Source: a virus
Taxonomy: Duplodnaviria > Caudoviricetes
Strand: one strand, 5' to 3'
Virus record (IMG/VR): IMGVR_UViG_2919380674_000001
Coordinates: 1 to 64,000 of that record
DNA length: 64,000 nt
Both the position numbers and the translations under genes were made by a program. Positions 808 to 56,511 of the stretch are shown in pieces. Below the pieces are notes generated by a model that saw nothing but the letters and a program-made list of their open reading frames with translations, did no database searches and was not told the DNA's origin. Within the stretch, counting starts at the first letter, position 1, and each line of letters opens with the position of its first letter.

Positions 808-859
808 AACCGGTTCACTTCTCGTAGGCTCCACCATTGCCACTCAACTTTGGATACAA
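808..859. other. att-like site 1 (hybrid; only the right arm is conserved)
   Basis: Right arm ACCATTGCCACTCAACTTTGGATACAA aligns without gaps (27 nt) to the right arms at 3652-3678 and 56485-56511; the left arm is not symmetric. Confidence 0.55.
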
Positions 860-1027
860 AAGTGTGAGTGCGAACAGAACTCTTCGGGTTCCGCTTTTTA
901 CTTGGTAGAACGTGGAAAACGAGGGGTTTTCTGCGTTCGGGTTGGGTGCGCATCAGGGCTAGAGGAGTCTGGGCGAGGCCCTTTTGGGGAGCCCAGACGT
1001 CGGTCTGGTTGTCCGAGCGCCCGAGGG

Positions 1028-1063
1028 TGTCAAAAAGTGCAGGCCACCGTCAAAAAGTATGGA
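1028..1063 (+). repeat. GTCAAAAAGT direct repeats, 20-bp period, downstream of att-like site 1
   Basis: tgtcaaaaagtgc at 1028 and cgtcaaaaagtatgg at 1048; the whole 841-1063 block is a diverged copy of 3661-3880. Confidence 0.6.
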
Positions 1064-1119
1064 TGGGGGACCGCGTCCAAAGCGAACTACGCCAACGATC
1101 AGGCCGCTACGTCTCACGC

Positions 1120-1770
1120 ACTCCCCCCCCCTCACCAAAATGATCTACTGCGCCGATTGCGGGGGATCTTCGGATGCAAGACCTGGCACTCGAACACCAA
1201 GTACGAACGACGCATCTGGCGCTGCAACAACAAATACGGACACGGCAAGACCCCATGCGCCACACCACACGTCACCGATACCGACTAGAGCAAGCCTTCG
1301 TCGAAGCTCTCGCTGAGCGCGTCAAGTCAAACACCGGTGCCCGCAACGCGCTCGAAATCCTTGAAGCAACAGTTTTTGACACGAGTGAGCTGGAAGCCCA
1401 ACGTGACCGTGCTGCTCAGCAGGTTGAGGAAATCACAGTCTTAATCGACCAGCTGGTTCTCACCGCAGTACAGACCGCGATCGACCCAGACGAGTACGAC
1501 CAGAAGTACGCCGAGCTTGAAGCCCGCTACAATCAGGCCTGCACTAAGCGCGCTGACCTTAAATCACAGATCACCGACCGGCACGCACGCCTCGAACAAG
1601 CACGCACCATCTGCGACTTCCTGGACTCCAACCCGCCGCTCGAGTACCGCGACGACGCCTGGTCGCTACTCGTTGACCATGCCATGGTCGACACTGAAGG
1701 CGCCGTCAGCGTCAGGTTTAAGGATGAGGCCACAGGTGCGTATGGGCCGGAGGTTGGCGGTCAGTTTTGA
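1120..1770 (+). pseudogene. C-terminal remnant of a large serine recombinase (Zn ribbon plus coiled coil) with two frameshifts
   Basis: PLTKMIYCADCGG / IFGCKTWHSNTKYERRIWRCNNKY...CATPHVTD / LEQAFVEALAE... lie in three ORFs and are collinear with the C-terminus of 54795-56375; the shifts fall at a G run (~1165) and at ~1282. Confidence 0.8.
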
Positions 1771-1897
1771 TAGACTTCCAAAGTCAGGACCGTGTTAAGA
1801 CATCAGATATTGAGGAGTTTGTCGTTCCGATGAGCATGTGATTTCCACTCAGCCTTGGCTGAGACGTATCAGAAGTTTCTACGTCCCGGAGATCAGT

Positions 1898-3514
1898 ATG
1901 CTTTCAATTAACCTTGACACTATTTCTTTTTCTTACGGTTCTCACCGTGTGTTGGATCATGTAAGCCTGCATGTTGGCGAGGGGGAACGAGCGGTACTCA
2001 TCGGACCAAATGGCTGTGGTAAGACAACTCTGCTTAAGATCATTAGGGGAGACCTCCAACCAGATTCAGGAAGGGTTGTTTCTTGCACAGCAAATCACCT
2101 CGTGCCAGATCCTGATGGTTTTGAAGGCCAAGTAGCGAAGTACTTTGATGTCGCCCTAGGACCGCTCAACGACTTGTCGGCGCGCTTTAAGCAGATCACC
2201 GTTTCCCTTGCCAACGGTGATAAGGCGCAGGAATCGGAATATGACCGGGTACTAGCGGAAATGACCGCACACGACGTATGGTCCCTCGATGCCCGAGCCG
2301 CTGAAGTACTAGCTGGTTTAGGACTGGCTGGAATTGGCATGTCGTCGGAACGTGACATGTCATCATTGTCTCCCGGCCAGCGCGCGCGTTTACGGTTGGC
2401 AGCGCTGTTACTCTTACACCCCGACGTTCTGATTCTTGATGAGCCAACCAACCATCTCGATATCGCGGCAATCGACTTCTTATCCAACACAATCAAGAAC
2501 TGGGCAGGGCCAGTGCTCCTAGCCAGTCACGATCGAGCCTTTATCGACAACATTGCGACCGTCATTTATGACATGGACGTCACCGTGTGGCGCGAACTTG
2601 CGAAGGCACAAGGTGACACGAGCGTCCAGGGTTTACACCGTAACGCCGGAAACTACTCGGACTACCTGAATGCAAAGGAGACAGCGCGAAGCAAACACCA
2701 TCAAATTCACGCTGAACAACAAACCCAGAAGCGTCACTTGCGAGTGCATCGTCAAGAGAGCATGAAGATCGCACGTGGTGGGGTCCGGCTCGAAACCGCT
2801 TCAGGGAAAGCAAAGAAATTCTACTCCGATCGAGCAGCATCAACGTCAGTTAAGCGAACACGCAATGACGATATGCGACTAGAGCGGCTCGATGAGCGCG
2901 AAGTAAGAAAACCTCGCTACTACGAATTGGAGTTCCCACACCGGCAAGGCCCCTTGACTACCGGAATCGCAGTATCAGCACGACAAGCTGGCGTGGCGCA
3001 TCGACTTACACCACTAGACCTCGATCTTTCAGTAGGGGAGCACCTGTTAGTCACAGGCGCGAACGGTTCAGGAAAGACCACGCTTTTGAACTGGATTGCC
3101 ACCGGCAAACCACCATCAGGCGCAACCGTAAGCGGGTTCTTGTCCCGAGATAGCTCCATCGGTCACGTACCTCAGCGTCTGCCTGTGGAAGAGGATCCCG
3201 GATTCGGTAGTGACATCTGGCGACATGGAATTGGAGCGATTGGCAAAGGAATCTTGCACCCATCGACGTGGTCTAGTCCCATCGCGGAGCTGTCTGCTGG
3301 AAACCAGCGCCGAGCACAGATTGCTATCGCATTAACCAACCACCCTGCACTTCTGATCATTGATGAGTCGACCAACTACCTCGACCTCGATACTATGCAA
3401 GCGCTAGAAGATACTCTACAAACATGGGAAGGAACGCTCATTATCGCGAGTCACGATCGATGGCTGATCGAACACTGGCATGGACGCAGACTTCAACTGA
3501 CGCACAGTAAATAG
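1898..3514 (+). CDS. ABC-F family ATPase, candidate ribosome-protection (antibiotic resistance) protein
   Basis: Two ABC domains (GPNGCGKT, LSPGQ, LILDEPTNHLD; GANGSGKT, LSAGN, LIIDESTNYLD), no TM segments, long basic interdomain linker; ATG at 1898 (ORF open from 1838). Confidence 0.88.
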   Translation: MLSINLDTISFSYGSHRVLDHVSLHVGEGERAVLIGPNGCGKTTLLKIIRGDLQPDSGRVVSCTANHLVPDPDGFEGQVAKYFDVALGPLNDLSARFKQITVSLANGDKAQESEYDRVLAEMTAHDVWSLDARAAEVLAGLGLAGIGMSSERDMSSLSPGQRARLRLAALLLLHPDVLILDEPTNHLDIAAIDFLSNTIKNWAGPVLLASHDRAFIDNIATVIYDMDVTVWRELAKAQGDTSVQGLHRNAGNYSDYLNAKETARSKHHQIHAEQQTQKRHLRVHRQESMKIARGGVRLETASGKAKKFYSDRAASTSVKRTRNDDMRLERLDEREVRKPRYYELEFPHRQGPLTTGIAVSARQAGVAHRLTPLDLDLSVGEHLLVTGANGSGKTTLLNWIATGKPPSGATVSGFLSRDSSIGHVPQRLPVEEDPGFGSDIWRHGIGAIGKGILHPSTWSSPIAELSAGNQRRAQIAIALTNHPALLIIDESTNYLDLDTMQALEDTLQTWEGTLIIASHDRWLIEHWHGRRLQLTHSK

Positions 3515-3545
3515 CTTGATGAATGCTGAAAGCCCTGGTCAGGAA

Positions 3546-3620
3546 GTGGGTGCATGCGACCTGAAATCTGCACCCACCCAGCCAGATTTTGCACCCACCT
3601 GATCTAAAAATGCACCCACC
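3546..3620. repeat. TGCACCCACC repeats: three direct copies at 21-bp period plus one inverted copy
   Basis: Direct copies at 3569, 3590 and 3611; inverted GTGGGTGCA at 3546; the array abuts att-like site 2. Confidence 0.85.
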
Positions 3621-3626
3621 TGGGCT

Positions 3627-3678
3627 TTGTAGCCAAAGTTGAGTACAGACAACCGTTTGTACTCACTCTTGGATACAA
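3627..3678. other. att-like site 2 (symmetric, 52 bp, central AC); probable left prophage boundary
   Basis: TTGTAGCCAAAGTTGAGTACAGAC-AACC-GTTTGTACTCACTCTTGGATACAA is an imperfect inverted repeat. Confidence 0.65.
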
Positions 3679-3845
3679 TGATTTGAGTGAGTTGAGAACC
3701 CCTCGGGTTACATGCTTTGCCTAGTCAAGCGCGTAATCCTAGGGGTTTTCTGCGTTCTGGGTGTGACAGAGTGGTCGCTGGGGAGGGTCGATTGGAGCTG
3801 AATCTGGTGTCTGTTGGGTGGTCTACTGGTCCGAGCGCCCGAGAG

Positions 3846-3917
3846 CGTCAAAAAGAGCAGGCTACCGTCAAAAGTATGGGTAGGCGCCAAAAGTGCTCAC
3901 GGGGCGTCAGAAGACGC
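3846..3917 (+). repeat. CGYCAAAAG repeats (~20-bp period) downstream of att-like site 2
   Basis: cgtcaaaaag 3846, cgtcaaaagtatggg 3866, cgccaaaag 3885, cgtcagaag 3905. Confidence 0.6.
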
Positions 3918-3986
3918 TAGCGGGATCATGGCTGGGACACGTGTGTCCAGACAGGCTTGGTCATCTTCGATTGATAGAATTTCGTC

Positions 3987-4949
3987 ATGGTAGAAGCATC
4001 TGAGATTGAGCGCGAGCTAGAGATAGCCCAAGACACGCTACAGGAGCTAGCTGGCGACGATGTGGATGCGATCGAGATAAAAAGCGTTGAGGCTGATGAG
4101 GCGCCGTTCCTCGCTCGGATCGTCAGCAAACTGAGCCCGATGGTCGGAAATCTTATGGAGCAGCGAATTGCTTCTATTCTCAATGAAGCCGCATCTGACG
4201 GGTTTGAGTGGCATCGGCAGGATCCCGGATTTCCAGACGCGGTGCTTGTCGATAGCACGTCCAGAGAGATTTTGGCAGGGTATGAGATCAAGGCTTGGTT
4301 CGTGTTGAGCACGGAGATTACTGGTCGTTTCCGCGAATCTGTGAATCTGCTTCTGGATCAAAATATCAATGTCGTGATCGTTGCTTGGTGTATGAGCAAT
4401 CTCGTTTTTGGTGAGCCTAAAGTGCTCGGAACGCTAATTGTTTCTGGTGAAGAATTGGCGCGTAGTCGCGATAGTCATTATCACAAACCTCCGCACTATC
4501 TGACGATCGAGCCCAATGATACAAGCAGTCGGACGGCAAATCTTCAGCAATCGAACGTAAATGGGTACAGATTACAGGTTGAGAAGTCTGATCCGAAGTT
4601 GCTCCAAGAGGCCTTGGATCGGGAGTTTTCTACGTCGAACCCGTGTTCTGAAGAGGCTCAAGCTGAGGCTACAGAATTGATGCGTGACCTCGAATATCGC
4701 CTCGATACGAACTTTGCGAAAATTGATCGCGTTGCAAACAAAGATGTCGAGGACTTCAAAAGGCGGATCATGAAATTGAAGTACCTAGACAAAACGATTT
4801 CGAGTTGGAAAACTGTGTTCTCAGATCTTACAAGCACTAATGATAAGAAACGGGAGAAGGCTGAAGCTACCATCATGCAGTTCTACGACTCGATGAAGGT
4901 CGAAGAACCTAAAACATCGGTTTCTGAAGAGTCTGAAGGCGCTCACTAG
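3987..4949 (+). CDS. Putative type II restriction endonuclease (PD-(D/E)xK fold)
   Basis: FPDAVLVD...GYEIKAW motif; convergent with and overlapping a DNA methyltransferase. Confidence 0.65.
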   Translation: MVEASEIERELEIAQDTLQELAGDDVDAIEIKSVEADEAPFLARIVSKLSPMVGNLMEQRIASILNEAASDGFEWHRQDPGFPDAVLVDSTSREILAGYEIKAWFVLSTEITGRFRESVNLLLDQNINVVIVAWCMSNLVFGEPKVLGTLIVSGEELARSRDSHYHKPPHYLTIEPNDTSSRTANLQQSNVNGYRLQVEKSDPKLLQEALDREFSTSNPCSEEAQAEATELMRDLEYRLDTNFAKIDRVANKDVEDFKRRIMKLKYLDKTISSWKTVFSDLTSTNDKKREKAEATIMQFYDSMKVEEPKTSVSEESEGAH

Positions 4950-5928
4950 CCATTTGGTAGAAATCATCGTTGATTTCGGCGGCCCACGGATGTCTTCCTA
5001 GCTGAAGCGCTGCTACGGAAGCGGTACAGAGTCCTCCAAACGGTTCCCAAACTGTATCTCCGGGATTGGTGCTTGCCTGGATGATACGTGTCATCAGGTC
5101 GAGCGGTTTTTGGTTCAGGTGGCTCGCACTCATTTGGGTAGGCTTACCTGCACGCGGGGCAGACTTAATGAGGCTTCCGCGATAACGCTCTCTACCTCTA
5201 AGACTTGGCCTGTCCCAAACGTTTGTTATGCCATGTTCGTAGTTCCAGGGAGATCTAGTTCCCGCCCACTCGTCCGCGGTGACCGGAGATACCCCATTCA
5301 GTGAATAGTAGGGGCGGCCAGCAGGATCGCCGTGCTCGTTTGCGTACGCAACGATTTTCATCATTGCATCGACTGGCGGGTAGTACCAAAGCCAACCTTG
5401 GTCAAAGTACTTGCGAGTGGCAGCGTTTTTCACTCCGCATGCTTCGTTCGCTAGCCGTTGGGGAAGACCAGTTCTCTTCCACTCCGACAGAAGCCATTCC
5501 TTCATATGAATATGCCCAGAACTATTATCGGATGACGAGATAAGTGGCTTGCGGGTGTAGAAAACACATACCTCTGTTACCACAGGGAAGCGACGTATCG
5601 TCTTGGAATTCACGTTACCTGCTACTTGCCCGACGCCCTTATTCCAGATATTTGTGAACTCATATTGCCAGCCGTTCTCATCGAGGACGGGATGCGCATT
5701 TGCCCAGCCGACTTCTGTGTTCCAAAACCACAATGTGGTCGCCAGAGTGGAACGCTTAGACCATTCTTCGATGTGAGGTCTGTACCAATCAGCTAGTCCG
5801 TCTGGGGTTCTAGGGTCGCCTGGAAAGCCTCCAACTCCGTACGCGCCGTCGCTGACAATAGTGTTGGGCGTTTGCCATTGACTGTAGACATCAAGGGCGT
5901 CGTTGTGGAAAAGATTAAAGTCTGTCAT
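4909..5928 (-). CDS. N4-cytosine/N6-adenine DNA methyltransferase (beta-type motif order)
   Basis: Motif IV variant IVSDGAYG near the N-terminus; HLNQKPLDL and VWEPFGGLCT (motif I) near the C-terminus. Confidence 0.85.
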   Translation of the reverse strand: MTDFNLFHNDALDVYSQWQTPNTIVSDGAYGVGGFPGDPRTPDGLADWYRPHIEEWSKRSTLATTLWFWNTEVGWANAHPVLDENGWQYEFTNIWNKGVGQVAGNVNSKTIRRFPVVTEVCVFYTRKPLISSSDNSSGHIHMKEWLLSEWKRTGLPQRLANEACGVKNAATRKYFDQGWLWYYPPVDAMMKIVAYANEHGDPAGRPYYSLNGVSPVTADEWAGTRSPWNYEHGITNVWDRPSLRGRERYRGSLIKSAPRAGKPTQMSASHLNQKPLDLMTRIIQASTNPGDTVWEPFGGLCTASVAALQLGRHPWAAEINDDFYQMASERLQTLQKPMF

Positions 5929-5973: not shown

Positions 5974-6219
5974 TCAAGTTCGGGTCTCGTTAGAGGTACT
6001 TGAGTCCCGGCGCTCAACTTGGCAAATGTCTGAGATGTTGCAATCCAGTGCTTCGCAAATCCGTAGAAGAATATCCGTGGTGACGTTGCCTCCACGTCCG
6101 AGCTTGGCGATGGTTGCTGGGCTGAGCCCTGCGAGTTCTTGGAGCTGGGTTTTGGTCATGTCACGGTCGATGAGGAGCTTCCACAGGGGTTTGTAGCTGA
6201 AGGTGGGGCTATTGGGCAT
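5974..6219 (-). CDS. Cro/C1-type (XRE) HTH transcriptional regulator
   Basis: SYKPLWKLLIDRDMTKTQLQELAGLSPATIAKLGRG...ICEALDCNISDI. Confidence 0.9.
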   Translation of the reverse strand: MPNSPTFSYKPLWKLLIDRDMTKTQLQELAGLSPATIAKLGRGGNVTTDILLRICEALDCNISDICQVERRDSSTSNETRT

Positions 6220-8083
6220 CGGGTTCCTCCGTGTCGATGATGTCCTCGTCGTGGATGTCTTCGAGGAAGCCGTAGCGGCCGTGACTTTCTTGTTTGGTGA
6301 AGTAAATCAGGTTGCAACGGGATTGCAGTTTGGTGATGTCGGGCATGTATTTGATGTTGTCGACAATGATCATCTGACCGAGATCTTGACGCTCGGTCAG
6401 GAAGTCATACAGGGCTATCGGGATGGTCTCTCGGGCTTCTTGAAGCTCGGGATCGAGCTGCGGGTCATCGAGACCAAGGAGCGGAGTGTCGATCATGAGG
6501 ACACCTGGGCTGTGCATGGCAGCCTCTGAGGCGAAGTATTCGCGCAGCGTGAGCAGCACCGCTGTGTTCACGAACGAACGGTAGCCCTTGCCTTGCTTGC
6601 TTTTCGTTTTCCCGTTGACCACGCCATCAAACAGTTCACGCGAGAACGTTGCACGGTCAAGACGCGGGAACGCACACGCCCCAAGAGTGTCGAGCAAGCC
6701 TTCGCTCATCTTTTCCCAAAACGATTCCGGGAACTCATTGGTGGCATTGAAATTACCTTTGGGGAACGTCTTAGCTTGGCGCTCAGCGATTTCTTGCTCG
6801 ATCGCTGTTTTGCGCTCGCGGAGTTCTTCCAGTTCGGTTTGCATCGCAACGACTGCATTGTTGGCGGCAATGCTGGATGCGAGGGCATGTAGTTGCGGGC
6901 GTAGCTGGTTTTCAATGTGTTCTGTAATGCGCCGGGAGTGGAAGGCTAGTTGTTGTTCTTCTGCAACGAGTGGTGCGTGTTCGGTTTCCATTTGGGTGAT
7001 CGTCTGGCGTAGCCCGTCAAGCCTGGTGAGAAGGTTTTGCCGCTCGCGCGGATCAGGTTCAGCCGCGGCAGGCGTCTTGTCTGCTGGCAGGGTTTGCTCA
7101 CAGATGGGACACGATTCAGGTGCGGGGATAGCACTGGTAAGCACGTGGCCTTCGTGAACGAAGTCGAAACGGTCGATTTTGGCTTGGTAGGAGGACGCGA
7201 GTTCTTCGTAGCGATGCCGAAGCGCGCCAGATTCGGCTAACTGGTCACGGATTTCTTGGAGCCGGGAGGCTACCTGTTCACCTTCACGTGCAGCGTTCTC
7301 AATGAGCGTGTTGACGTGTGCGACCTGTGCAGATAGTTCGTCGATAGTGCGTTGGGCTTGGTCGGGGTTGCTGGTTTCGAGGGCTGCTTCGAGGGTATCG
7401 ATGCGTTGGCGTAGCTCGTCTGGTTTTGGAGTCAGGTAGTCGATGATCGCGTTGTTTCGTAGCTTCTTGGTTTCGTTGTTCTCCTCGCGTGCGTATGCGG
7501 CGTAGTCCTTGTCGGTGATGAACGCTGCGAGCGTGCATTTAGCGGCGGTGTGTGCCGTGTTTTGCTCTGGTAGGAGGATAGGGGCTTTCTTGGTGATGTT
7601 GTCTTCGTCAGCGTAGAACGCGTGGGAAACTGTGCGCCATGTTAGGTTTTGAACGTCGTAGTTCTGGTTCTTGATGACCTTGAGTTCATCAGGATTCTCG
7701 AACCCTGCTAGGCGCAGCCACAGGGAGTTGAGTAGCGCCCTGTTTTTGGTCTTGTTGAGCCGGTATTGTCCTGATGGGATCCGTTTGTCGGTGCTCGTAA
7801 CGTCGACGATGGTGTGGCCTTGCCCGATTGGGCGTGTGAGCGTTAGTTGTCCGAACGGGGTGCGTAGCCCCATGCGTACTTCGGTGTATCCGGACTGCTC
7901 GTCGATGGCGAAATCCTTGGTGGCCGCGCCGAACATGTAGTCGATTGATTGCAAGACCCAGGATTTTCCGGTGTTTGATGGCCCGCACACGATATTGAGG
8001 CCGTCGGTGAGGTTGATGCGGGAGTCTTCGCGGGTGGGGTGTCCTGCCACCGTGATGTGAGTAATCCAAAAGCCTGGTTTCAT
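6209..8083 (-). CDS. ABC-three-component/Lamassu-like SMC/Rad50-type ATPase (LmuB-like)
   Basis: Walker A GPSNTGKS, long coiled coil with a CPIC zinc hook, C-terminal KQGKGYRS and VLMIDTP Walker B. Confidence 0.8.
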   Translation of the reverse strand: MKPGFWITHITVAGHPTREDSRINLTDGLNIVCGPSNTGKSWVLQSIDYMFGAATKDFAIDEQSGYTEVRMGLRTPFGQLTLTRPIGQGHTIVDVTSTDKRIPSGQYRLNKTKNRALLNSLWLRLAGFENPDELKVIKNQNYDVQNLTWRTVSHAFYADEDNITKKAPILLPEQNTAHTAAKCTLAAFITDKDYAAYAREENNETKKLRNNAIIDYLTPKPDELRQRIDTLEAALETSNPDQAQRTIDELSAQVAHVNTLIENAAREGEQVASRLQEIRDQLAESGALRHRYEELASSYQAKIDRFDFVHEGHVLTSAIPAPESCPICEQTLPADKTPAAAEPDPRERQNLLTRLDGLRQTITQMETEHAPLVAEEQQLAFHSRRITEHIENQLRPQLHALASSIAANNAVVAMQTELEELRERKTAIEQEIAERQAKTFPKGNFNATNEFPESFWEKMSEGLLDTLGACAFPRLDRATFSRELFDGVVNGKTKSKQGKGYRSFVNTAVLLTLREYFASEAAMHSPGVLMIDTPLLGLDDPQLDPELQEARETIPIALYDFLTERQDLGQMIIVDNIKYMPDITKLQSRCNLIYFTKQESHGRYGFLEDIHDEDIIDTEEPDAQ

Positions 8084-8526
8084 CGGGACTCTCCTGGGGT
8101 GGCTGCGGTGAGAATGAATGATGTGAGCGTGTTGGTGTCTTGGTCGTCGACACGCTCAATGGTCTCCAGCGCGGCGTTGAAAAAGTCCGTGGCGTATTGG
8201 GTGCTGAGCCGGTTAACCAGCGTGGCGCCTTCGTCACTGATGACGAAGCGTCCATGCCCGTTGTCCTGGGTGTAGTGGACGAGCCCTTGGATGGTCATGT
8301 GCTGCAAGGCTTGGGTCATGAGGTTGGTGCGGGCGTTCAGTTCGCCGGAGGCGAGCCGGTGGGTGCCGTTCACGTTCGTTTCGCCCAGACCGAAGGTGTG
8401 TGCATTGACGGTGAGCGTGTCAAGGCATGCCAAGTAGTCCACGTCGGTTGGCTCGTCGAGAAGGAATAGGAAGATCAGGGCGCGAAGCTCGGCTTCGAAG
8501 CTGGTATCGAGGGCTGAAAGTCTCAT
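8080..8526 (-). CDS. ABC-3C middle component (MC2 / LmuC-like)
   Basis: FEAELRAL...YLACLDTLTV...FGLGETNVNG...GELNAR...GLV pattern; ATGA overlaps with both neighbours. Confidence 0.75.
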   Translation of the reverse strand: MRLSALDTSFEAELRALIFLFLLDEPTDVDYLACLDTLTVNAHTFGLGETNVNGTHRLASGELNARTNLMTQALQHMTIQGLVHYTQDNGHGRFVISDEGATLVNRLSTQYATDFFNAALETIERVDDQDTNTLTSFILTAATPGESR

Positions 8527-9518
8527 GCGTCCACCCACGACAATCTGCCTTGTGCGGCCAGTTCATGACATGAGCCTTTACGACTCCACACGTCGATAAG
8601 GGTGATGATTTGATCGAGCCGCTGACGATCGAGTTGGACTTGAACAGCTTGGGCTAGGGTGGCCAGGAGCCGTTCGACACCGTTTGGGTAGGTGCGCAGG
8701 TTTGTGTCGGTGACTCCGGCGTGCATGCTGTCAAGGAACTCGTCGAACATTGCCTTGCCGTTATGGATACAGCTCCATGAGGCTTCTCGTACCCATTCGG
8801 CGCTGTAGAACGCTTTGCGTTGGTCTTGGAAATGAGCCGACCAGCGTGGCGGAATATCGTCAATCACCGGTTCTAGATTGCTGGTGGGCAATCCTTCGCA
8901 GTAGGCGTGCAGTAAGGCGGCGACGTAGATGAGTTCGTCGGGCTGAATATGTTCGGGAACGTCCTTTTTCGGTGGAAGCCCCACTGATTGATCGCCAAGG
9001 CGCAGCCGGTTGGTTTTCTCATCAATATACGGAGCAACCGACTGCGGGGCGGGTGTGGGCAGGTTGAGCGAAACCTCGAGTGGTGACGGGGCGGTGTCGC
9101 GGATAGAGACGAGGACTTCGCGGATGAGCGCACCGAGACCACGTCCAACATTGCCTTTGTTGATTCTCGCATCGATATGGTGCAACCTGTCGGCGAGTTC
9201 ATTGAGAACGGGCTCTTGATACCAGTCGAGCAGGTTCGAGGAGAATTCTTCTTCATCCCACCTTCCAGCAAGTTCACCTGCAAAGTCCGGCTTCATCGGA
9301 TACGAGCCGTTCGCATACCCCTTCCACGTGGAAACGGCACGCAGCTCGATAGCTGTCCGTTCATCACCCGTGTCAGGTGCTGGTACGAGTCCCAGGTCGA
9401 TGACGAATGCGGTGAACTCGCCAAGCTTGCGGGTGCCTTTCATCATTGGACGAAGCGCATCGACGAGTTGCGTGAAGTTATTCTTCTCGCCCAATTTCAC
9501 CTCCGCAATCGCGTTCAA
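8523..9518 (-). CDS. ABC-3C effector-position protein (CTD6-like C-terminus, LmuA-like) with an apparently non-enzymatic N-terminal domain
   Basis: C-terminal HFQDQRKAFYSAE...RKGSCHELAAQGRLSWV; first gene of the triad; likely start is TTG at 9494 after GGAGGTG. Confidence 0.72.
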   Translation of the reverse strand: MNAIAEVKLGEKNNFTQLVDALRPMMKGTRKLGEFTAFVIDLGLVPAPDTGDERTAIELRAVSTWKGYANGSYPMKPDFAGELAGRWDEEEFSSNLLDWYQEPVLNELADRLHHIDARINKGNVGRGLGALIREVLVSIRDTAPSPLEVSLNLPTPAPQSVAPYIDEKTNRLRLGDQSVGLPPKKDVPEHIQPDELIYVAALLHAYCEGLPTSNLEPVIDDIPPRWSAHFQDQRKAFYSAEWVREASWSCIHNGKAMFDEFLDSMHAGVTDTNLRTYPNGVERLLATLAQAVQVQLDRQRLDQIITLIDVWSRKGSCHELAAQGRLSWVDA

Positions 9519-9697
9519 TCGCTGTCAATCGGTTGACCATCGCCTACTCACGCGCAGATTCGTTTAATGGAAATGCAAGAGCGGAACGAGTGACAACATC
9601 CTTTCTGATTATACAGTCTCGCTTCACTCTTGGCGTGTTCATCTACGCGAACGCGTAGTCGTGTCGCAACGAGCGTGGGCAGGAGGTGAGAAGAGAC

Positions 9698-9841
9698 ATG
9701 GGTAAACGAAACATGAAGCAGACGTCTCGGCTGGTAGCCACCAAGGCATCGGCACTTCTGCGCGATGGCCGAACCTCAGCCAGGACGAAGTCCGTAGCAG
9801 GCTCCGCGCTGGCCCAAGCCAAGCCGCGTAAGGGCAAGTAA
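9698..9841 (+). CDS. 47-aa highly basic small protein (absent from the ORF track)
   Basis: MGKRNMKQTSRLVATKASALLRDGRTSARTKSVAGSALAQAKPRKGK with a strong AGGAGGTGA RBS at 9681-9689. Confidence 0.75.
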   Translation: MGKRNMKQTSRLVATKASALLRDGRTSARTKSVAGSALAQAKPRKGK

Positions 9842-10127
9842 CACCCTCGCTGGTGTTTCGCAGCGCGGTCGACAGCCGCGAAACACTCTCTCATTTTCCT
9901 TTTCGGCGATGCCGCACCGGTCAACCGGCACGCTGAAACCTTTCTCCTACTTTTCCGCATGCGCAGAGCCGTATTCGGGAAGACCACCGTTGAGCGCTTG
10001 ACGGGCACCACCTCAATCCGGGTTTAACCCGGCGGGGCTGGTGCCCGTCACTGCATCCGCTCAACATTTCGGTCTTCTCTCGGCAGTCCTCAACGGGGTC
10101 TCCCTTTACAAGAAGGGAACCCCACTC

Positions 10128-10658
10128 ATGGGATTCATTACCTATACGTCTGTTGTCGGTGATCCGATCGTTGTTGAAGCTGAGGATCGGTGGGTTGAGA
10201 TCGTCACTGATCTTGACCGGGCTGAATACAACAACGAACACGGATATCACCGTCAAGACCGTAAAGGCGTCAAGTTCTGCTCGTGGGATGCCTACAACTC
10301 CTACGGCAACCAGGAAGCCGGATCCACGCCGTCAGCCGAAGACATCGTATGCGAGAACGAAACCGCCACTGAACAAGAGCACCTTCTCCAGGCCGTTGGC
10401 GAGTTGCTGGTCGAGCTCATCAAGAAGCTGCCGCCTGCGCAGCGGGAAGTGTTCATCGCCATCCGTGTCCAACAGCGGCCTGCAGTGGAGGTGGCCGCTG
10501 CCCGTGGCGTGTCAAAAGCGGCGATCTCGAAAACGTTGAAGAAAGCCACTGAACACCTGCGTGAGGGACTGATCGCGGCAGGGGTTAACTCCAGCGATCT
10601 TCATGGCCTCCCTATGAGCGAGGCACACGGCACCGCTCAGGAAGGAACGAACAAATGA
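10128..10658 (+). CDS. Phage sigma-70 region 4 domain protein (ECF-like sigma factor)
   Basis: LIKKLPPAQREVF...EVAAARGVSKAAISKTLKKATEHLR region-4 HTH. Confidence 0.8.
   Translation: MGFITYTSVVGDPIVVEAEDRWVEIVTDLDRAEYNNEHGYHRQDRKGVKFCSWDAYNSYGNQEAGSTPSAEDIVCENETATEQEHLLQAVGELLVELIKKLPPAQREVFIAIRVQQRPAVEVAAARGVSKAAISKTLKKATEHLREGLIAAGVNSSDLHGLPMSEAHGTAQEGTNK
10581..10620 (+). promoter_or_regulatory. Phage motif A copy 1 (GGGGTTAACTC-N12-TGGCCT-N5-TGAGMG)
   Basis: Identical spacing at 10581, 16238 and 52829, each just upstream of an operon start. Confidence 0.7.
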
Positions 10659-10906
10659 GTACCAAGCTCAAGCTCAAGATCGGCAAAAACCCCAACCCCG
10701 ATGCGGCACTGTCGGCAAAGGAAATCCGAGTCACCACGCGGATGCTGCGCGCCATCTTCGGCACCACCACACCGCTCCACAAGATGGCGATCCTCCTGCC
10801 CGGATCCGATACCACGAACGTCGAAGTCCAGATCACTGAACCTGATGACGACCTCATGGCCTTGGTAGATGCTCTGGACGGGCGCGCGGGAGGTGGAGGG
10901 CGATGA
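10655..10906 (+). CDS. Phage hypothetical protein
   Basis: Coupled ORF with RBS in the early operon. Confidence 0.65.
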   Translation: MSTKLKLKIGKNPNPDAALSAKEIRVTTRMLRAIFGTTTPLHKMAILLPGSDTTNVEVQITEPDDDLMALVDALDGRAGGGGR

Positions 10907-11316
10907 TGGATTTCCAGACACGCAACCAACTAATCGGCGCATGGAACCAGGCTGCCGCCTATGCGTGTGAGCAGGCGCAGGCCCTCGAGGACGACTGGTA
11001 TGAGCAGGTTGAAGACCATGCGGGAATGATCGGTGACCGCCCGATACCAGCTGCACGACTCATCGGCACATCAGAACCAAGCTGTTCCCCAGCGCACGAA
11101 GAAACACCAGACATGTCTCCAGTTGCGGAGCCTGAACCTGCGGTGACGTTGGAGGACGTGCGCGGCGTGCTCGCTGAGGTCTCGGCGCAAGGTCACACGG
11201 CAAAGATTCGCGAGCTGATTGTTGCCACCGGCGCGGACAAGCTCTCGGCGGTTGACCCGTCGAAGTACGGCTGGCTTCTTGAGCGGGCGAAGGAGATTGC
11301 TGATGGCACCGTCTGA
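10903..11316 (+). CDS. Conserved phage protein upstream of DUF2800
   Basis: C-terminal VTLEDVRGVLAEVSAQGHTAKIRELI...GADKLSAVDP. Confidence 0.75.
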   Translation: MMDFQTRNQLIGAWNQAAAYACEQAQALEDDWYEQVEDHAGMIGDRPIPAARLIGTSEPSCSPAHEETPDMSPVAEPEPAVTLEDVRGVLAEVSAQGHTAKIRELIVATGADKLSAVDPSKYGWLLERAKEIADGTV

Positions 11317-12439
11317 TCACGCACTCCTCTCAGCTTCTGGTGCTCACAGGTGGCTCAACTGCACCCCGTCGGCGCGTCTGGAGTCTGATGAGCCGGAGTC
11401 GACGTCGGCTGCGGCCGAACAAGGCACTGTCGCTCACGCGCTGGCTGAGCACAAGCTCCGCCGAGTGTTGAAGCAGCGCTCGAAGCGGCCAGTCTCAACT
11501 TGGGTTGATGACGAGATGGAAACCCTCACGGATGACTATGTGGCGTTCGTGCAAGAACGCATCTCCATCGCCCAAGAATCCTGTGGTGATCCGCAGGTGC
11601 TGATCGAGCAGCGTCTCGACTTCTCCCACATTGTTCCGGGAGGTTTCGGCACCGGCGACTGTGTGATCATCGCCGAACCCACCTTGCAGATCATTGATCT
11701 CAAGTACGGGCAAGGCGTGCTGGTCGAGGCCGCACACAACCCGCAGCTGATGCTCTACGCGCTCGGAGCCGTCCACGTTTTCGGGGACTTGTATGACATC
11801 GAGACCGTAGCGGTGACGATCTACCAGCCTCGCCGGGGCAACGTCGACACCTGGGAAACCTCCGTCGCAGACCTCCTCGCGTGGGCTGAGACGGAGGTCA
11901 AGCCGAAGGCTGAGCTGGCCTCGGCGGGTGGGGGCGAGTTTTGTCCAGGCTCGTGGTGCCAGTTCTGTCGCATCGCACCGACGTGTCGGGCACGAGCCGA
12001 AGCCAACCTCACCCTGGCAAAGCACGAGTTCGCCCCACCGGCCGAGCTGTCTGATGTGGAGATCTCGGATGTGCTGGCTCGGATTCCGGATTTGAAGTCT
12101 TGGGCAGCCGACGTGGAGGCCTACGCGCTCTCGAAGGCCGTCAATCAAGGCGTGGTCTTTGAGGGGTTCAAGCTCGTCGCTGGACGTTCTGTACGCAAAT
12201 ACACCTCCGAAACCGACGTGGCTGCGGCGGCTGAGGCGGCTGGATATAGGGACATTTATGATCGCAAGCTCATCACGCTCACGGCAATGGAACGGCTCAT
12301 GGGTAAACCCGCCTTCAACGAGATCCTCGGCGATCTCGTGACTAAGCCTGCCGGCAAACCAACCCTGGTCCCTGCATCCGACAAACGGCCGTCGCTCGAC
12401 CTGGTGAGTGCGGCCACCGATTTTCAAACAAACAAGTAA
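11303..12439 (+). CDS. DUF2800 Cas4-like PD-(D/E)xK nuclease
   Basis: HALLSASGAHRWLNCTPS, GFGTGDC, IIDLKYG, QLMLYALG, WCQFC...C. Confidence 0.88.
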   Translation: MAPSDHALLSASGAHRWLNCTPSARLESDEPESTSAAAEQGTVAHALAEHKLRRVLKQRSKRPVSTWVDDEMETLTDDYVAFVQERISIAQESCGDPQVLIEQRLDFSHIVPGGFGTGDCVIIAEPTLQIIDLKYGQGVLVEAAHNPQLMLYALGAVHVFGDLYDIETVAVTIYQPRRGNVDTWETSVADLLAWAETEVKPKAELASAGGGEFCPGSWCQFCRIAPTCRARAEANLTLAKHEFAPPAELSDVEISDVLARIPDLKSWAADVEAYALSKAVNQGVVFEGFKLVAGRSVRKYTSETDVAAAAEAAGYRDIYDRKLITLTAMERLMGKPAFNEILGDLVTKPAGKPTLVPASDKRPSLDLVSAATDFQTNK

Positions 12440-12461
12440 CTAGTAGAAAGCAGAAAAGATT

Positions 12462-13013
12462 ATGACTACTCAGAATCCGACCCGTATTGTCACCGGCGAA
12501 GTACGCCTGTCCTATGCCCATGTGTGGGAGCCGAACTCCATCCAAGGCGGAAAACCCAAGTACTCCGTCTCCCTCATTATCCCCAAATCCGACACCGCCA
12601 CGATTGCGGCTATTGAGAAGGCCGTGGATGCCGCCATCGAGGCCGGGATCGGGAAGTTTGGCGGGAAGCGACCCAACAAGGCCGCCCTCAAGTTGCCGCT
12701 GCGTGATGGGGATATTGAGCGTGACGACGAAGCCTACAAGGGCGCCTACTTCCTCAACGCCAACTCCCTGACGGCTCCGCAGATCGTCGACGAGCATGTG
12801 GCACCGATTCTTGATCGTGCCGAGGTCTACTCAGGCTGCTACGCCCGCGTTTCCTTGAGTTTCTATGCGTTTAACACGAATGGCAACCGTGGCATCGCCT
12901 GCGGACTGGGGAACATTCAAAAGACCCGTGACGGTGAGAGCCTTGGCGGCGGGCGTGTCTCGGCTGAGACCGACTTCGGTGCCTTCGCCGCTGATGACGA
13001 CTTCCTGAACTAA
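12462..13013 (+). CDS. DUF2815 phage ssDNA-binding protein
   Basis: VRLSYAHVWEP...LPLRDGD...VYSGCYAR...GLGNIQK, acidic tail ending DDDFLN. Confidence 0.9.
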   Translation: MTTQNPTRIVTGEVRLSYAHVWEPNSIQGGKPKYSVSLIIPKSDTATIAAIEKAVDAAIEAGIGKFGGKRPNKAALKLPLRDGDIERDDEAYKGAYFLNANSLTAPQIVDEHVAPILDRAEVYSGCYARVSLSFYAFNTNGNRGIACGLGNIQKTRDGESLGGGRVSAETDFGAFAADDDFLN

Positions 13014-13090
13014 CCATCCCCACACGTGGAGGAAACCAGCACATGCCGTTGGTTCCCTCCACTTTTCCTCTATGTGAAAGGAACCTCGTC

Positions 13091-23636: not shown

Positions 23637-23644
23637 ACGGGTTT

Positions 23645-24145: not shown

Positions 24146-24276
24146 AACACCCCCAACCCTAAAACTGAACAAATAAACATCCAACTTTCAGGGTTCAGTA
24201 CAACCTTTCAAGTTTCGTTGGCAGTTCTGCAAAGAGGCGAAGTGCCGTCAAGTTTTTCTCAGATTTCCTTTTCGTG

Positions 24277-51679: not shown

Positions 51680-51681
51680 TC

Positions 51682-52686: not shown

Positions 52687-52745
52687 GCCCCGTCATCACT
52701 GTGACTTCCCGGATTCTCGGGGAGCAGTTCATGGCGGGGCTTTTC
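52687..52745 (+). terminator. Terminator after the lysis cassette
   Basis: GCCCCGTCAT...ATGGCGGGGC followed by TTTT. Confidence 0.55.
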
Positions 52746-52766
52746 ATCATTCTTGAGGCTTTCTTA

Positions 52767-52868
52767 CCCGTCCGGATTCGCAGGTGCCCGAGGGCGTATG
52801 GGCAGAAGGCTCACAACACCTCGGTTGAGGGGTTAACTCGGCACACATTCGTGGCCTTCTACTGAGAG
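52767..52868 (+). promoter_or_regulatory. Tandem phage motifs B (52767-52800) and A (52829-52868) upstream of the recombinase module
   Basis: Same motifs and internal spacing as at 16164-16277. Confidence 0.7.
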
Positions 52869-52875
52869 GAGGCCA

Positions 52876-53292: not shown

Positions 53293-53477
53293 CAAAGAGC
53301 GTGTTTGATGCCGAGGTTGATCTAGCCAGGGTTGTGGGGTTCATTGATCGGCTCACTGACACTGGTGCACTGACCGACAGTGAAGCCCGCGTGGTGTTGA
53401 CTCGTGTGGCGGGGGAATTTCCTGCTGTTGTTGGTGGGCTGATTTTGCGGGTTCGACTGGATAAAACGCGGGTTTAG
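53289..53477 (+). CDS. SHOCT-like small protein
   Basis: FIDRLTDTGALTDSE; ATGA-coupled. Confidence 0.6.
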   Translation: MTKSVFDAEVDLARVVGFIDRLTDTGALTDSEARVVLTRVAGEFPAVVGGLILRVRLDKTRV

Positions 53478-53541
53478 AGCGTAGATGGATACAACCAGCT
53501 GAACCCCTTATTTATTAGGGGAAACGAGCAGTGTAAGGAGA

Positions 53542-54798
53542 TTGAGATACATGGGTGAGATGAGGGTGATCCCGGCGAGACCAGCACGGCCGCAGCGGTT
53601 GAGGGTAGCGGCCTACGCGCGGGTGTCCACTGAGCACGAACGGCAATTGTCGTCGATCGCCGCCCAGGTGTCGTACTACTCCCATCTGATTCAATCCACC
53701 CCTGGGTGGGACTATGTCGGGGTGTTTATCGACGAAGGTATTACCGGCACCTCCACCAAGCATCGCGATGGATTCAAACGCCTCATGGACACCGCTAGGG
53801 CAGGCGGCATTGACGTTATTTTGACGAAGTCGATCTCGCGCCTTGCCCGCAACACTGTCGATCTGCTTGATGCGGTGCGCGAGCTGAAAGCCCTCGGGGT
53901 GGCGGTGCGTTTCGAACGCGAACAGATCGACACCCTCAGCGCTGACGGGGAACTCCTACTGACGCTGCTGGCATCGTTTGTGCAGGAAGAATCTCGATCC
54001 ATGTCAAAGAACGTCAAGTGGGGGATCAGGAAGAAATACGCCGACGGGTCAGTGCATTCGCGCCAACCCTACGGCTACCAATATTTAGGTGGCGACCTGG
54101 TCATCATTGAGGCCGAAGCCAAGATTATCAGAAGGATATTCGCGGAGTTCCTCGCAGGCATCTCACCCGAAGCCACCGCCACCCGGCTCAACGCTGAAGG
54201 GGTCAAGCCCAGGCGGGGAGCCAAGTTTCGTGGGAAGACGATCCGCAAATGGCTCGAAAACGAAATCTACACAGGCCGCGCGGTGCTGCAAAAGTATTAC
54301 CGTCCAAACGTTGCAGAATCGAACTGTCATACCAACACAGGTGAGCTGCCCCGCTATCTTGTCGACGAATCCCACCCGGCCATCATCGACCAAACCACGT
54401 TCGACGCCGTCCAAGCCGAACTTGTCCGCCGCAGGCACCTTGGACGTGGAGCCACACCCTCAGGTGGCACGACCGGGCTCACCTCACGGATCGAATGCTT
54501 TGTCTGTGGCAGGTTCTATCACCGACGAACTAAGACAGGCCGCCACCGTTCTTACAAGTTCTGGTGGTGCGAAACCGCAACCAAAGGCAAAGGCAACCCC
54601 TGCCACGCACCCCAAATCCGAGAAACCCGCCTCACCCGGATCTGCACCCATGTGCTCGGCTTCGATGCCTGGGACGACGACACGGCTCTGACCAGCCTGG
54701 CGAAGATCGTCGTCAACCCGGATCGCACGCTCACCATCCACACCACCCGCACCGAAACGCCAGTGACGGTGAAGCTGGACGAGAGGAGCACACGGTGA
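53542..54798 (+). CDS. Large serine recombinase 1
   Basis: AAYARVST, TKSISRLARN, recombinase domain, CFVCG Zn ribbon; no long coiled coil. Confidence 0.93.
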   Translation: MRYMGEMRVIPARPARPQRLRVAAYARVSTEHERQLSSIAAQVSYYSHLIQSTPGWDYVGVFIDEGITGTSTKHRDGFKRLMDTARAGGIDVILTKSISRLARNTVDLLDAVRELKALGVAVRFEREQIDTLSADGELLLTLLASFVQEESRSMSKNVKWGIRKKYADGSVHSRQPYGYQYLGGDLVIIEAEAKIIRRIFAEFLAGISPEATATRLNAEGVKPRRGAKFRGKTIRKWLENEIYTGRAVLQKYYRPNVAESNCHTNTGELPRYLVDESHPAIIDQTTFDAVQAELVRRRHLGRGATPSGGTTGLTSRIECFVCGRFYHRRTKTGRHRSYKFWWCETATKGKGNPCHAPQIRETRLTRICTHVLGFDAWDDDTALTSLAKIVVNPDRTLTIHTTRTETPVTVKLDERSTR

Positions 54799-56375
54799 CC
54801 ACGACGCAGATTCGGCGGAAGCGGGTCACCGCGATCCCAGCCACGAAAACACCCGGCCACGCTACGGTGCTGGGTGTTCAGCGTCGGCGTAGAGTGGCGG
54901 CCTACGCGCGGGTATCCACCGAAGCTGAGGAACAAGCCTCCTCCTACGAGGCACAGATCGACTACTACACCCACTACATCCAATCCCGCACCGAGTGGGA
55001 ATTCGCAGGTATGTATGCCGACGAAGGCATCACCGGCACGAGCACGAAACACCGCGAAGGCTTCAAAACCATGATCGCCGACGCCCTGGCAGGCAAAATC
55101 GACCTCATCCTCACCAAGAGTGTGTCCCGGTTTGCTCGCAACACCGTCGACTCCTTGACCACCGTGCGCAAGCTCAAAGACGCAGGCGTGGAGGTCTACT
55201 TCGAAAAAGAAAACATCTGGACACTCGATTCCAAAGGCGAACTGCTCATCACCATCATGTCCAGCCTGGCGCAAGAAGAATCCCGCTCAATTTCCGAGAA
55301 CGTCACCTGGGGCCACCGTAAACGCTTCGCCGACGGGAAAATCATGGTCCCCTACGCTTCACTGTTGGGCTACAAGAAAGGCGATGACGGAAACCTCGCC
55401 ATCGACGAAACCCAAGCCCCGATCGTGCGGCGCATCTACGCCACCTTCCTAGAAGGCGCAACACCTCAAACCATCGCCAAAGAACTCACCGCTGATCAGA
55501 TTCCTACACCGCGTGGCAAACAAATCTGGTCGCCATCCACTGTGCGATCGATCCTGACCAACGAGAAATACAAAGGCGACGCGCTGCTCCAAAAGAGCTT
55601 CACTACCGACTTCCTGACCAAAACCATGAAAGTCAACGAAGGCGAAGTACCCCAGTACTACGTCACCGGCAACCACGAACCCATCATCACCCCAGCCACC
55701 TGGGACGTGGTCCAAGCAGAACTCGCCCGCCGCGCAGGCAAAGGCACCTCCAATACCCACCCCTTTGCCAACAAGATCACCTGCAGCGAGTGTGGTGGCT
55801 CGTTCGGGAGGAAAGTGTGGCACTCCACCAGCAAATACCGCCGCTATATCTGGCGCTGCAACAACAAATACAAGAAAATTCATCGTTGCGCGACACCCCA
55901 CGTCACCGAGGAGCAGATCAAAAACGCCTTCGTCGCCACCCTGGCTGAGCACGTCACCAACACTGACGTTCTCGATAACACCATGTGCCTGCTCGACGAA
56001 ACCGTCTACGACACCCGCGAGTTGGAAACTCAACAGGCCACGCTAGGGGAGCGGATCGAAGAAACGATCACGCTGATGAACCAACTCATCACCACCGCAG
56101 CAGCCACAACCCACGACCCCGACGACTACGACCGCCACTACCACCAGCTCGAAACCCGACACCGCCAACTCGAGACCGAGCACCAGCACATCACCGACAA
56201 GATCGACGACCTGCGCCACCGCCGAGCACAAGCCATCAAAGTCCACGTCTACCTCGCCACCCTGCCACCACTCGCATACAGCGACCAAGCATGGAACACC
56301 CTCGTCGACCACGCCATTATCAACACTAATGGAGCCATCAGCGTCATCTTCAAAGACGAACAATCGGCCAGCTAA
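54795..56375 (+). CDS. Large serine recombinase 2
   Basis: AAYARVST, TKSVSRFARN, CSECG Zn ribbon, coiled coil; GTG start overlaps the upstream stop. Confidence 0.93.
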   Translation: MTTTQIRRKRVTAIPATKTPGHATVLGVQRRRRVAAYARVSTEAEEQASSYEAQIDYYTHYIQSRTEWEFAGMYADEGITGTSTKHREGFKTMIADALAGKIDLILTKSVSRFARNTVDSLTTVRKLKDAGVEVYFEKENIWTLDSKGELLITIMSSLAQEESRSISENVTWGHRKRFADGKIMVPYASLLGYKKGDDGNLAIDETQAPIVRRIYATFLEGATPQTIAKELTADQIPTPRGKQIWSPSTVRSILTNEKYKGDALLQKSFTTDFLTKTMKVNEGEVPQYYVTGNHEPIITPATWDVVQAELARRAGKGTSNTHPFANKITCSECGGSFGRKVWHSTSKYRRYIWRCNNKYKKIHRCATPHVTEEQIKNAFVATLAEHVTNTDVLDNTMCLLDETVYDTRELETQQATLGERIEETITLMNQLITTAAATTHDPDDYDRHYHQLETRHRQLETEHQHITDKIDDLRHRRAQAIKVHVYLATLPPLAYSDQAWNTLVDHAIINTNGAISVIFKDEQSAS

Positions 56376-56459
56376 CTCGCTCACAGCAATAAAACCAGCA
56401 ATTCCTACCCCGTCTTTGGAAAACACCCCCTACCGAATGAATCTGCCCCCAAGCCAGTC

Positions 56460-56511
56460 TTGTATCAAAATGAACGTGTAAGTAACCATTAGGACGCTCA
56501 TTTTGATACAA
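56460..56511. other. att-like site 3 (symmetric, 52 bp, central AC); probable right prophage boundary
   Basis: Perfect 14-bp IR TTGTATCAAAATGA / TCATTTTGATACAA about 85 bp after the recombinase stop. Confidence 0.7.

Follow-up and report, generated by a model that had tools for sequence, protein, structure and literature searches.

The DNA analysed here, a 64,000-nucleotide stretch of the viral record IMGVR_UViG_2919380674_000001 (the window throughout this text), carries a prophage with two adjacent large serine recombinase genes and, around it, a row of short sites at which units of different content meet. These sites are probably the attachment-site (att) junctions of temperate phages with twin recombinases, and of derivatives of such phages, and the row as a whole would then be a tandem accretion array at tRNA-Ala(GGC). 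The original prediction, made from the window alone, had pictured a platform on which cassettes are stacked at three sites. Its central idea stands, in the form of junctions between stacked units whose comparative breakpoints fall at or near the site centres; its boundaries do not, since there are five junctions (S0-S4) enclosing four units, and the array is anchored on tRNA-Ala.

Junction sites and array layout

Three of the five junctions lie within the window:
808-859, plus strand: S1, attL-type, with a left arm like a tRNA 3' end (808-832), AC (833-834) and right arm b' (835-859)
3627-3678, plus strand: S2, P/P' junction with arm b (3627-3651), AC (3652-3653) and arm b' (3654-3678)
56460-56511, plus strand: S3, P/P' junction with arm a (56460-56484), AC (56485-56486) and arm a' (56487-56511)

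The sites have a geometry of 25 + 2 + 25 nucleotides (nt), with arms joined to differing partners at a central AC, or at TC in relatives, and the exact cut position can be placed within a shared 2-6 nt. As had been predicted, the right arms align without gaps and in one orientation: taken with the centre as 27 nt, S1 and S2 are identical at 20/27 positions, and S1 and S3, like S2 and S3, at 19/27. The central dinucleotides also point one way across the whole array. The predicted symmetry of S2 and S3 about AC was likewise confirmed, the left arm agreeing with the reverse complement of the right arm at 19/25 positions in each, as compared with 5/25 in S1. The left arm of S1 had been taken for unrelated sequence; it turned out to mimic the 3' end of tRNA-Ala(GGC), with 18 of 25 nt identical, and because of this identity S1 is, judged from its sequence, of attL form, a tRNA-like arm joined to a P' arm. 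Such an arm was found in S1 only; in S2, S3 and S4 the likeness to the tRNA end is confined to the central AC.

The outer heptamers and the centre of the symmetric sites can be written as a degenerate 52-nt pattern, TTGTANC, 18 N, AC, 18 N, GNTACAA. It has two matches in the window, S2 and S3, against an expectation of 0.00 (100 shuffles). In the whole contig (2.01 Mb without its terminal overlap) it marks three distinct places, S2, S3 and S4, all inside the array, and it also matches the copy of S2 that lies in that overlap.

The window corresponds to bases 501-64500 of one 2.03-Mb contig, the host of which belongs to the genus Arcanobacterium. Genome positions 1-22730 recur at the contig end (2010308-2033041) with 99.96% identity and small indels, most likely as the overlap of an uncircularised long-read assembly; U0, S1, U1, S2 and 18 kb of the prophage are thereby duplicated in the sequence file. 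The region upstream of the window was read across this overlap. There, the end of tRNA-Ala(GGC) lies 572 nt before the window, and its terminal ...GCTCC/AC/ is joined directly to an arm a' that is identical at 26/27 positions to the right arm of S3; the resulting site, S0, occupies positions 549-600 nt upstream of the window, at the tRNA gene's 3' end. At the other end of the array, S4 is located at 65075-65126 in window numbering (genome 65575-65626), 1.1 kb beyond the window end. The arms follow one another in the order tRNA-Ala/AC/a' (S0), U0, tRNA-like/AC/b' (S1), U1, b/AC/b' (S2), prophage, a/AC/a' (S3), U3 and a/AC/c' (S4), with the four units arranged head to tail downstream of tRNA-Ala(GGC). 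Measured from centre to centre, U0 comprises 1,408, U1 2,819, the prophage 52,833 and U3 8,615 base pairs (bp), 65,675 bp in sum. U0, U1 and U3 hold no intact recombinase, and each is bounded by junctions.

Breakpoints, arm partners and a possible mechanism

The original prediction had placed strain breakpoints at the site centres. For S2, Logan contigs of four runs, all with copies of the ABC-F cassette of U1 (90-99% likeness), were compared with the stretch from the tRNA to S2. In three other organisms the match to the cassette ends at window positions 3652, 3654 and 3654, that is, at or within 2 nt of 3652/3653, and gives way to three different sequences; one of these continuations is a b'-type arm with a left module like that of U0, in other words another P/P' joint. 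In the fourth contig, again from another organism, a tRNA 3' end leads at its AC, over 109 nt, into the ABC-F cassette. The arm types of S3 and S1 were also found to change partners at the centre, so this part of the prediction was borne out, except for S1 itself (see below).

The same arms recur with a variety of partners. Arm a with AC is joined to a' in S3, to c' in S4 and to an unrelated terminator in the IMG/VR contig L127, and a variant of arm a with TC is joined to two further right sides, in Arcanobacterium ihumii, a species of the host's genus, and in L131. Arm a' is joined at AC to the 3' ends of tRNA-Ala(GGC), tRNA-Ala(TGC) and transfer-messenger RNA (tmRNA). In A. ihumii, a b' arm that differs by one base from that of S1 meets the tmRNA 3' end at AC, and a prophage is present as a single insertion at tRNA-Gly(CCC), with ...CCCGC/TC/a' on its left and a/TC/native terminator on its right; with the TC centre the 25 + 2 + 25 arrangement is kept and the register in the tRNA end is moved by 3 nt. 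In a genome of another genus of the same family (G016), the tRNA-Ala gene has an identical 3' end, which passes directly at AC into the right arm of S4, and the match goes on for the next ~90 nt (82.8% over 116 nt); no recombinase was found among six open reading frames (ORFs) scanned within 8 kb of this locus. Among 18 tRNA-Ala loci of relatives, 16 are followed by unrelated sequence with no GATACAA-type arm, one by c' and one by an a'-like arm.

A scan of the IMG/VR viral contigs for arm a returned 14 loci. The only relatives in P-arm context are L127 and L131; in L123, L124 and L133 the match is the palindromic partner of a'-type arms adjoining tRNA-like ends, and the remaining nine were discarded as unrelated coding sequence. 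The a/a' centre and arm b had 0 and 0 matches in IMG/VR, and the S3-type a/a' centre, as an exact pattern, had 0 matches in the metagenome collection, both being collections that may lack the host group.

These comparisons bear on two other explanations. The sites might be nothing more than terminator hairpins of tRNA genes, or palindromes arisen by chance, with no part in recombination. The right arms of S3 and S4 do form the 5' halves of terminator-like hairpins (S3, -27 kcal/mol, z -5.18; S4, z -2.81), yet the hairpins at S0, S1 and S2 did not fold significantly, the P arms are located after recombinase genes and not after tRNAs, the pattern is not expected in shuffled sequence, and the breaks of synteny on the site centres already contradict this explanation, to which we give hardly any credence. 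Alternatively, S2 and S3 might be the intact attP of one composite element that was assembled elsewhere and entered whole, or internal sites of resolution or inversion. Both have the attP form and follow a gene run at a distance of 85-113 nt, and composite islands are described as moving whole in the accessible part of one article (PMC5704250). The ABC-F cassette, however, is found by itself in other organisms, with different neighbours. The related prophage of A. ihumii is present as one insertion whose ends are hybrid, and centres that all point one way are ill-suited to inversion; we consider this explanation very improbable.

The enzymes that would act on the sites are encoded at the right end of the prophage:
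53542-54798, plus strand: rec1, large serine recombinase of 418 amino acids (aa), with Pfam Resolvase, Recombinase and Zn_ribbon_recom domains
54564-56375, plus strand: rec2, large serine recombinase with the Pfam three-domain architecture (listed ORF of 603 aa; homology to relatives begins near 54807, giving ~520 aa)

In both proteins all three Pfam families were matched (E 1e-5 to 1e-34), and both N-termini read ...AAYARVSTE..., a motif that we take to hold the catalytic serine. Rec2 is 92% identical to its A. ihumii homologue and 44% identical to rec1. The pair is kept in A. ihumii, Corynebacterium sp., Lawsonella, Varibaculum, Gleimia and a metagenome-assembled genome (MAG) of the Actinomycetaceae, and the genome collection contains at least 570 stretches related to rec2, many of them in Clostridia at 51-55%. 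The comparison with Ccr recombinases that had been drawn in the original prediction does not extend to family membership: with the Ccr models, rec1 and rec2 obtain 63-142 bits (best, 141.8 for rec2 against CcrB), whereas the cut-offs are 900 for CcrB, 900 for CcrC and 700 for CcrA.

Together, rec1 and rec2 would exchange strands at the central dinucleotide between an attP (P/P') and a tRNA or tmRNA gene at its 3' end. The attP of a newcomer would then recombine with the resident junction next to the tRNA (tRNA/P'). The tRNA arm would be retained in this step, leaving a junction that is still a usable target, and a symmetric P/P' joint would be left between the neighbours, which fits the earlier proposal that the symmetric attP-like sites are joints of one unit's right end and the next unit's left end. 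Units would have arrived in order from right to left, with the newest adjoining the tRNA, and internal deletions would have produced U0, U1 and U3 as att-flanked derivatives that keep both ends and that the prophage enzymes might in principle move in trans. The right halves of occupied and empty targets have little in common (those seen are c', three unrelated terminators and several P' arms), and because of this, it would appear to be mainly the tRNA arm that is recognised; in that case the joint next to the tRNA would remain a target, and a stack with P/P' joints would follow.

Several observations weigh against this account. Neither an excised circle nor an empty site nor a junction at read level was seen; the 24 runs listed consist of contigs, as does the one run in which the entire stretch is present and which may be its source. 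The material comes from one genome of this species, whose contig ends overlap by 22.7 kb. S1 is without outside support, as it is, like most of U0, not covered by the four runs and its tRNA-like left arm gave 0 exact matches in the metagenome collection, which may lack the host group; moreover, U0 ends on its right in a tRNA-like arm, which is not what a simple P arm would look like. The prophage has b' as its left arm, whereas the relative with the 92%-identical rec2 uses a' (18-19/27 alike), so the present left end of the prophage may not be the original one. The right arm of S4 could be the native tRNA terminator or the end of a flipped prophage remnant that follows it, and the comparison with G016 does not tell them apart. 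Finally, attP x attL is, to our knowledge, not a permitted pair for integrases of the phiC31 or Bxb1 type, and the accretion step therefore requires enzymes that tolerate differences in the right half of the target.

The stacked units and related loci

Every unit opens with homologous left-end DNA, in which a hairpin overlapping or following the P' arm is succeeded after 100-250 nt by 20-bp repeats of the AAAAGT type; another kind of repeat lies at the right end of U1:
1029-1068, 3840-3893 and 56690-56800: left-end repeats, 150-300 nt inside the P' arm
860-1070, plus strand: left-end module of U1, hairpins followed by the AAAAGT-type repeats at 1029-1068 (repeat families D5, D6 and D11)
56512-56830, plus strand: left-end module of U3, a hairpin overlapping arm a' followed by five 20-bp AAAAGTATGG-type repeats (D5/D6)
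3570-3620, plus strand: three GCACCCACC repeats at 21-bp spacing, just inside the right end of U1 and before S2

Positions 1002-1055 and 3820-3873 are 87% identical, and the left module of U3 shares 87.7% identity, over 324 nt, with the sequence that follows the tmRNA gene. Elsewhere in the genome, at least three GCACCCACC repeats are clustered only at the right end of the tRNA-Ala(TGC) cassette described below. Outside this genome, similar clusters precede P arms in an Actinomycetaceae MAG, Gleimia, a Propionibacteriaceae MAG, Schaalia canis and L127. We know of no comparable phased subterminal accessory sites for large serine integrases.

The genes of the two small units are as follows:
1-693, plus strand: U0, 230-aa protein with a zinc ribbon only (Pfam Zn_ribbon_recom, E 4.9e-9)
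1174-1770, plus strand: U1, 198-aa ORF, C-terminal fragment of a recombinase of the rec2 type (41% identity with rec2 residues 370-522)
1838-3514, plus strand: U1 (2.8 kb), ABC-F ATPase of 558 aa with two ABC_tran domains (Pfam)

The protein of 1-693, the sole gene of the 1.4-kb stub U0, has neither a catalytic nor a Recombinase domain. That it might be a truncated recombinase pseudogene was considered and ruled out, full-length homologues of ~230 aa being common. Within this genome one stands at the left end of a tmRNA-linked element (43% identity), and another occurs at the left end of the A. ihumii prophage; in a'-type elements the gene is the leftmost one (window 1-693; L003, 8760-9494; L119, 7276-8421, minus strand). 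Databases hold 41 relatives at E<=1e-5, mostly of 227-232 aa, from Propionimicrobium (93% identical), Actinomyces, Cutibacterium and Corynebacterium, annotated merely as 'zinc ribbon domain-containing protein'; in the order of the host the family is rare (5/401 sampled genomes). At two outside loci, L140 and L142, no tRNA was found within ~1.5 kb on either side of the zinc-ribbon-only gene. The protein could be an accessory or directionality factor.

The fragment at 1174-1770 is without a catalytic domain and matches the C-termini of rec2 proteins from five other genera; leftward of it, the contigs of other organisms carry unlike sequence, with one run resembling the zinc-ribbon region of rec2. 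The proposal that each unit to the left of a site holds recombinase-derived sequence is in this sense correct, with the qualification that the kinds differ, from the zinc-ribbon-only protein (1-693) and the C-terminal fragment (1174-1770) to two full-length enzymes (53542-56375); the gene at 1838-3514 is an ABC-F ATPase and no recombinase. Its best NCBIfam model is ribo_prot_ABC_F, with 286.2 bits against a cut-off of 380, and the TlrC/CarA/OleB/SrmB model gives 256.4 bits against 800. What had been called a resistance cassette (860-3626) is accordingly a bounded ABC-F unit with a candidate ribosome-protection resistance gene that reaches no curated resistance cut-off.

The prophage carries, apart from its recombinases, the following features:
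3679-56459, plus strand: prophage, 52.8 kb from centre to centre, with a Pfam phage gene set
3987-5928: type II restriction-modification (R-M) pair, endonuclease 3987-4949 (plus strand; PADLOC REase_II, E 6.3e-48) and methylase 4909-5928 (minus strand; MTase_II, Pfam N6_N4_Mtase)
6209-9518, minus strand: Lamassu-type operon LmuB, LmuC, LmuA (PADLOC E 8.4e-155, 8.8e-25 and 4.7e-47; Pfam ABC-3C MC2 and CTD6)
22788-24184, minus strand: IS3-family insertion sequence (Pfam rve and HTH_21 in one ORF, HTH_28 in the other)
32773-33852, minus strand: IS110-family transposase (Pfam DEDD_Tnp_IS110, Transposase_20)

From left to right it consists of the left-end module (to 3893), defence, replication, packaging, head, tail and lysis genes and the two recombinases at the right end. 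Its set of replication, packaging, head, tail and lysis genes is complete, with Pfam matches to DUF2800, PolA, D5 primase, TerL, portal, ClpP protease, capsid, tape measure, holin and amidase, and a related prophage in the same genome is 77-91% identical at the nucleotide level over most of its length.

To the right of S3, unit U3 contains two defence systems:
57036-59794, minus strand: Gabija pair, GajB 57036-58163 (E 6.9e-96) and GajA 58160-59794 (E 2.6e-155), both from PADLOC
59791-64000, minus strand: type III R-M system, Res 59791-62781 and Mod from 62768, the latter cut by the window end

The GajA and GajB genes overlap and match OLD-like TOPRIM and UvrD-helicase families in Pfam; the type III endonuclease reaches 1123 bits against a cut-off of 564 in its NCBIfam model, with Pfam matches to T3RM_EcoP15I_C and N6_N4_Mtase. 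The defence block that had been proposed to lie beyond 56511 is thus real in content, but it is a bounded unit of 8.6 kb, which has no recombinase and extends past the window to S4. Just beyond the window end and directly adjoining S4 follows a flipped, gutted prophage remnant (genome 65627-78500), with an apparently full-length recombinase pair (423 and 517 aa) within 190 nt of the S4 right arm, a truncated portal gene and a terminase gene. Two response-regulator genes are found in and beside this remnant.

At least three further related elements are present in the genome, at 66-78 kb, 216-235 kb and 1129-1176 kb, in addition to a second small stack:
genome 215795-235000: tmRNA-linked element, tmRNA/AC/a', its left module sharing 87.7% identity with that following S3
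genome 1128679-1176899: related prophage of ~47 kb, lying with its recombinase end first against the 3' end of tRNA-Gly(CCC)
genome 1295500-1298154, minus strand: second small stack, tRNA-Ala(TGC)/AC/a' with two small ORFs, an ABC-F gene of 560 aa (opposite strand) and four GCACCCACC repeats

Elements occur in both orientations relative to the tRNA in this genome. At the end of the second small stack, the stub of a P arm runs into the 3' half of a hairpin of the a' type, and this fusion looks like a deletion scar across a P/P' joint. In other genera, a Corynebacterium contig has tRNA-Ala/AC/a' with the same left module, and a Propionimicrobium lymphophilum contig (L157, about 7490-13900) has three P/P' joints within 6.4 kb, one of which, beside an ABC-F gene, has an a' arm identical to that of S0 and the centre TC; the latter is an independent example of stacking in another family.

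With so many relatives in one genome, the stack could also have been formed by homologous recombination, deletion and inversion among related prophages, with the symmetric sites as by-products. U0, U1 and U3 have clearly arisen by deletion, the remnant beyond S4 is flipped, the tRNA-Ala(TGC) locus carries what looks like a deletion scar, and mosaics exist, such as a metagenome contig with an a' arm on a b'-type left module. Homologous exchange would not, however, put the joints of S2, S3 and S4 on one 2-nt centre of a 25 + 2 + 25 site, nor would it repeat joints at the same centre in other organisms with different partners, and we regard it as an unlikely origin of the array, if less so than a composite element that entered whole.

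Beyond accretion by twin-recombinase phages at tRNA-Ala(GGC), a wider reading can be entertained as a tentative whole, which we think rather doubtful. It would posit a family of twin-recombinase phages and islands throughout the Actinomycetota (Arcanobacterium, Corynebacterium, Propionimicrobium, Lawsonella, Varibaculum, Gleimia and Schaalia) that reads only the tRNA or tmRNA half of its target and so maintains an open-ended platform on which defence and resistance cassettes are collected and reshuffled. The dinucleotide would set register and orientation, and directionality would be controlled by the zinc-ribbon paralogue and by phased repeats, the GCACCCACC repeats at right ends and the AAAAGT-type repeats at left ends, with 20-21-bp phasing, serving as putative accessory binding sites; these would be directionality parts of kinds not known for serine integrases.

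Comparison with known systems

In Staphylococcus, staphylococcal cassette chromosome (SCC) elements are driven by CcrA-CcrB, form tandem stacks and target the 3' end of rlmH (orfX). SCCmec and other SCC elements resemble the present array in having two adjacent serine recombinase genes, a single chromosomal target at a conserved gene's 3' end, tandem composites, and recombinase-less cassettes with resistance or defence cargo between att-like junctions; part of these composite-island features is taken from the accessible portion of one article (PMC3146451). They differ in their rlmH target, which is replaced here by the 3' end of tRNA-Ala(GGC), and by tRNA and tmRNA ends generally; in addition, the Ccr models here stay below cut-off, the carrier is a tailed prophage and the junctions are 52-bp P/P' palindromes.

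A second parallel is offered by the ssrA islands of Dehalococcoides (McMurdie et al. 2011, PMC3146451). According to the part of that article available to us, these islands encode a CcrB-like DsiB and a DsiA, adjoining attL on the reverse strand; their boundaries are 20-bp direct repeats of ssrA with insertion in the T-loop, DsiA is a protein of ~200 aa without a DNA-binding domain, and tandem islands without integration modules are proposed to be cis-mobilizable by accretion. So far as this description goes, they share with the present system two serine recombinases, a target in the 3' part of the tmRNA gene and multiple tandem islands, and their reverse-strand module on the attL side resembles the flipped remnant and the ~47-kb prophage of this genome. 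Unlike those described there, the junctions here have no 20-bp repeat, 2 nt being shared, and the crossover is at the discriminator/CCA end; rec1, with 418 aa and Recombinase and zinc-ribbon domains, is unlike DsiA; and the targets here include tRNA-Ala and tRNA-Gly, with phages as carriers.

The concept of accretion and of cis-mobilizable elements (CIMEs) comes, in the accessible part of the source, from elements with tyrosine recombinases (ICESt1/ICESt3; PMC5704250). Within the same limits, the likeness is that a resident element decays to an att-flanked cassette and that a tandem may move jointly, and the difference is that tyrosine recombinases, long identity segments and conjugation operate there, and serine-recombinase phages here. 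As in a CIME, U3 lies between a' and a, the arm types found beside the recombinase end of the prophage, and U1 between b' and b, of which b' is common to the left end of the prophage.

Phage integrases of the phiC31, Bxb1 and A118 type are three-domain enzymes that act on an imperfectly symmetric attP of ~50 bp, with a 2-nt crossover that sets polarity. The domain architecture, the short symmetric att sites and the position of the integrase gene next to attP are the same here. Those phages use a single enzyme and target protein-coding genes, in contrast to the present array, and we know of no report of tandem stacking by integrases of these types. In 2014, the Islander paper stated, in its accessible part, that tRNA genes were not known as targets of serine-family integrases (PMC4383910), and in the open-access literature we found nothing on prophages with twin serine recombinases at tRNA genes or on prophage integration in Arcanobacterium.

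If the junctions are live, one pair of prophage recombinases could move three neighbouring cassettes (ABC-F, Gabija with type III R-M, and the stub), and new cassettes could keep accumulating at one tRNA gene. Near-identical ABC-F cassettes with the same end junction are present in assemblies of several other organisms, and the system, if real, would provide a simple travel route for defence and resistance modules among skin- and mucosa-associated actinobacteria. It would also extend serine integrases to tRNA-gene targets and offer for study compact att sites with a switchable central dinucleotide. By its sequence features, the locus is neither a Ccr system nor a Dsi-type island; stacking by serine recombinases is already known from SCC and from the Dehalococcoides ssrA islands, and it is the form that it takes here that is unusual.

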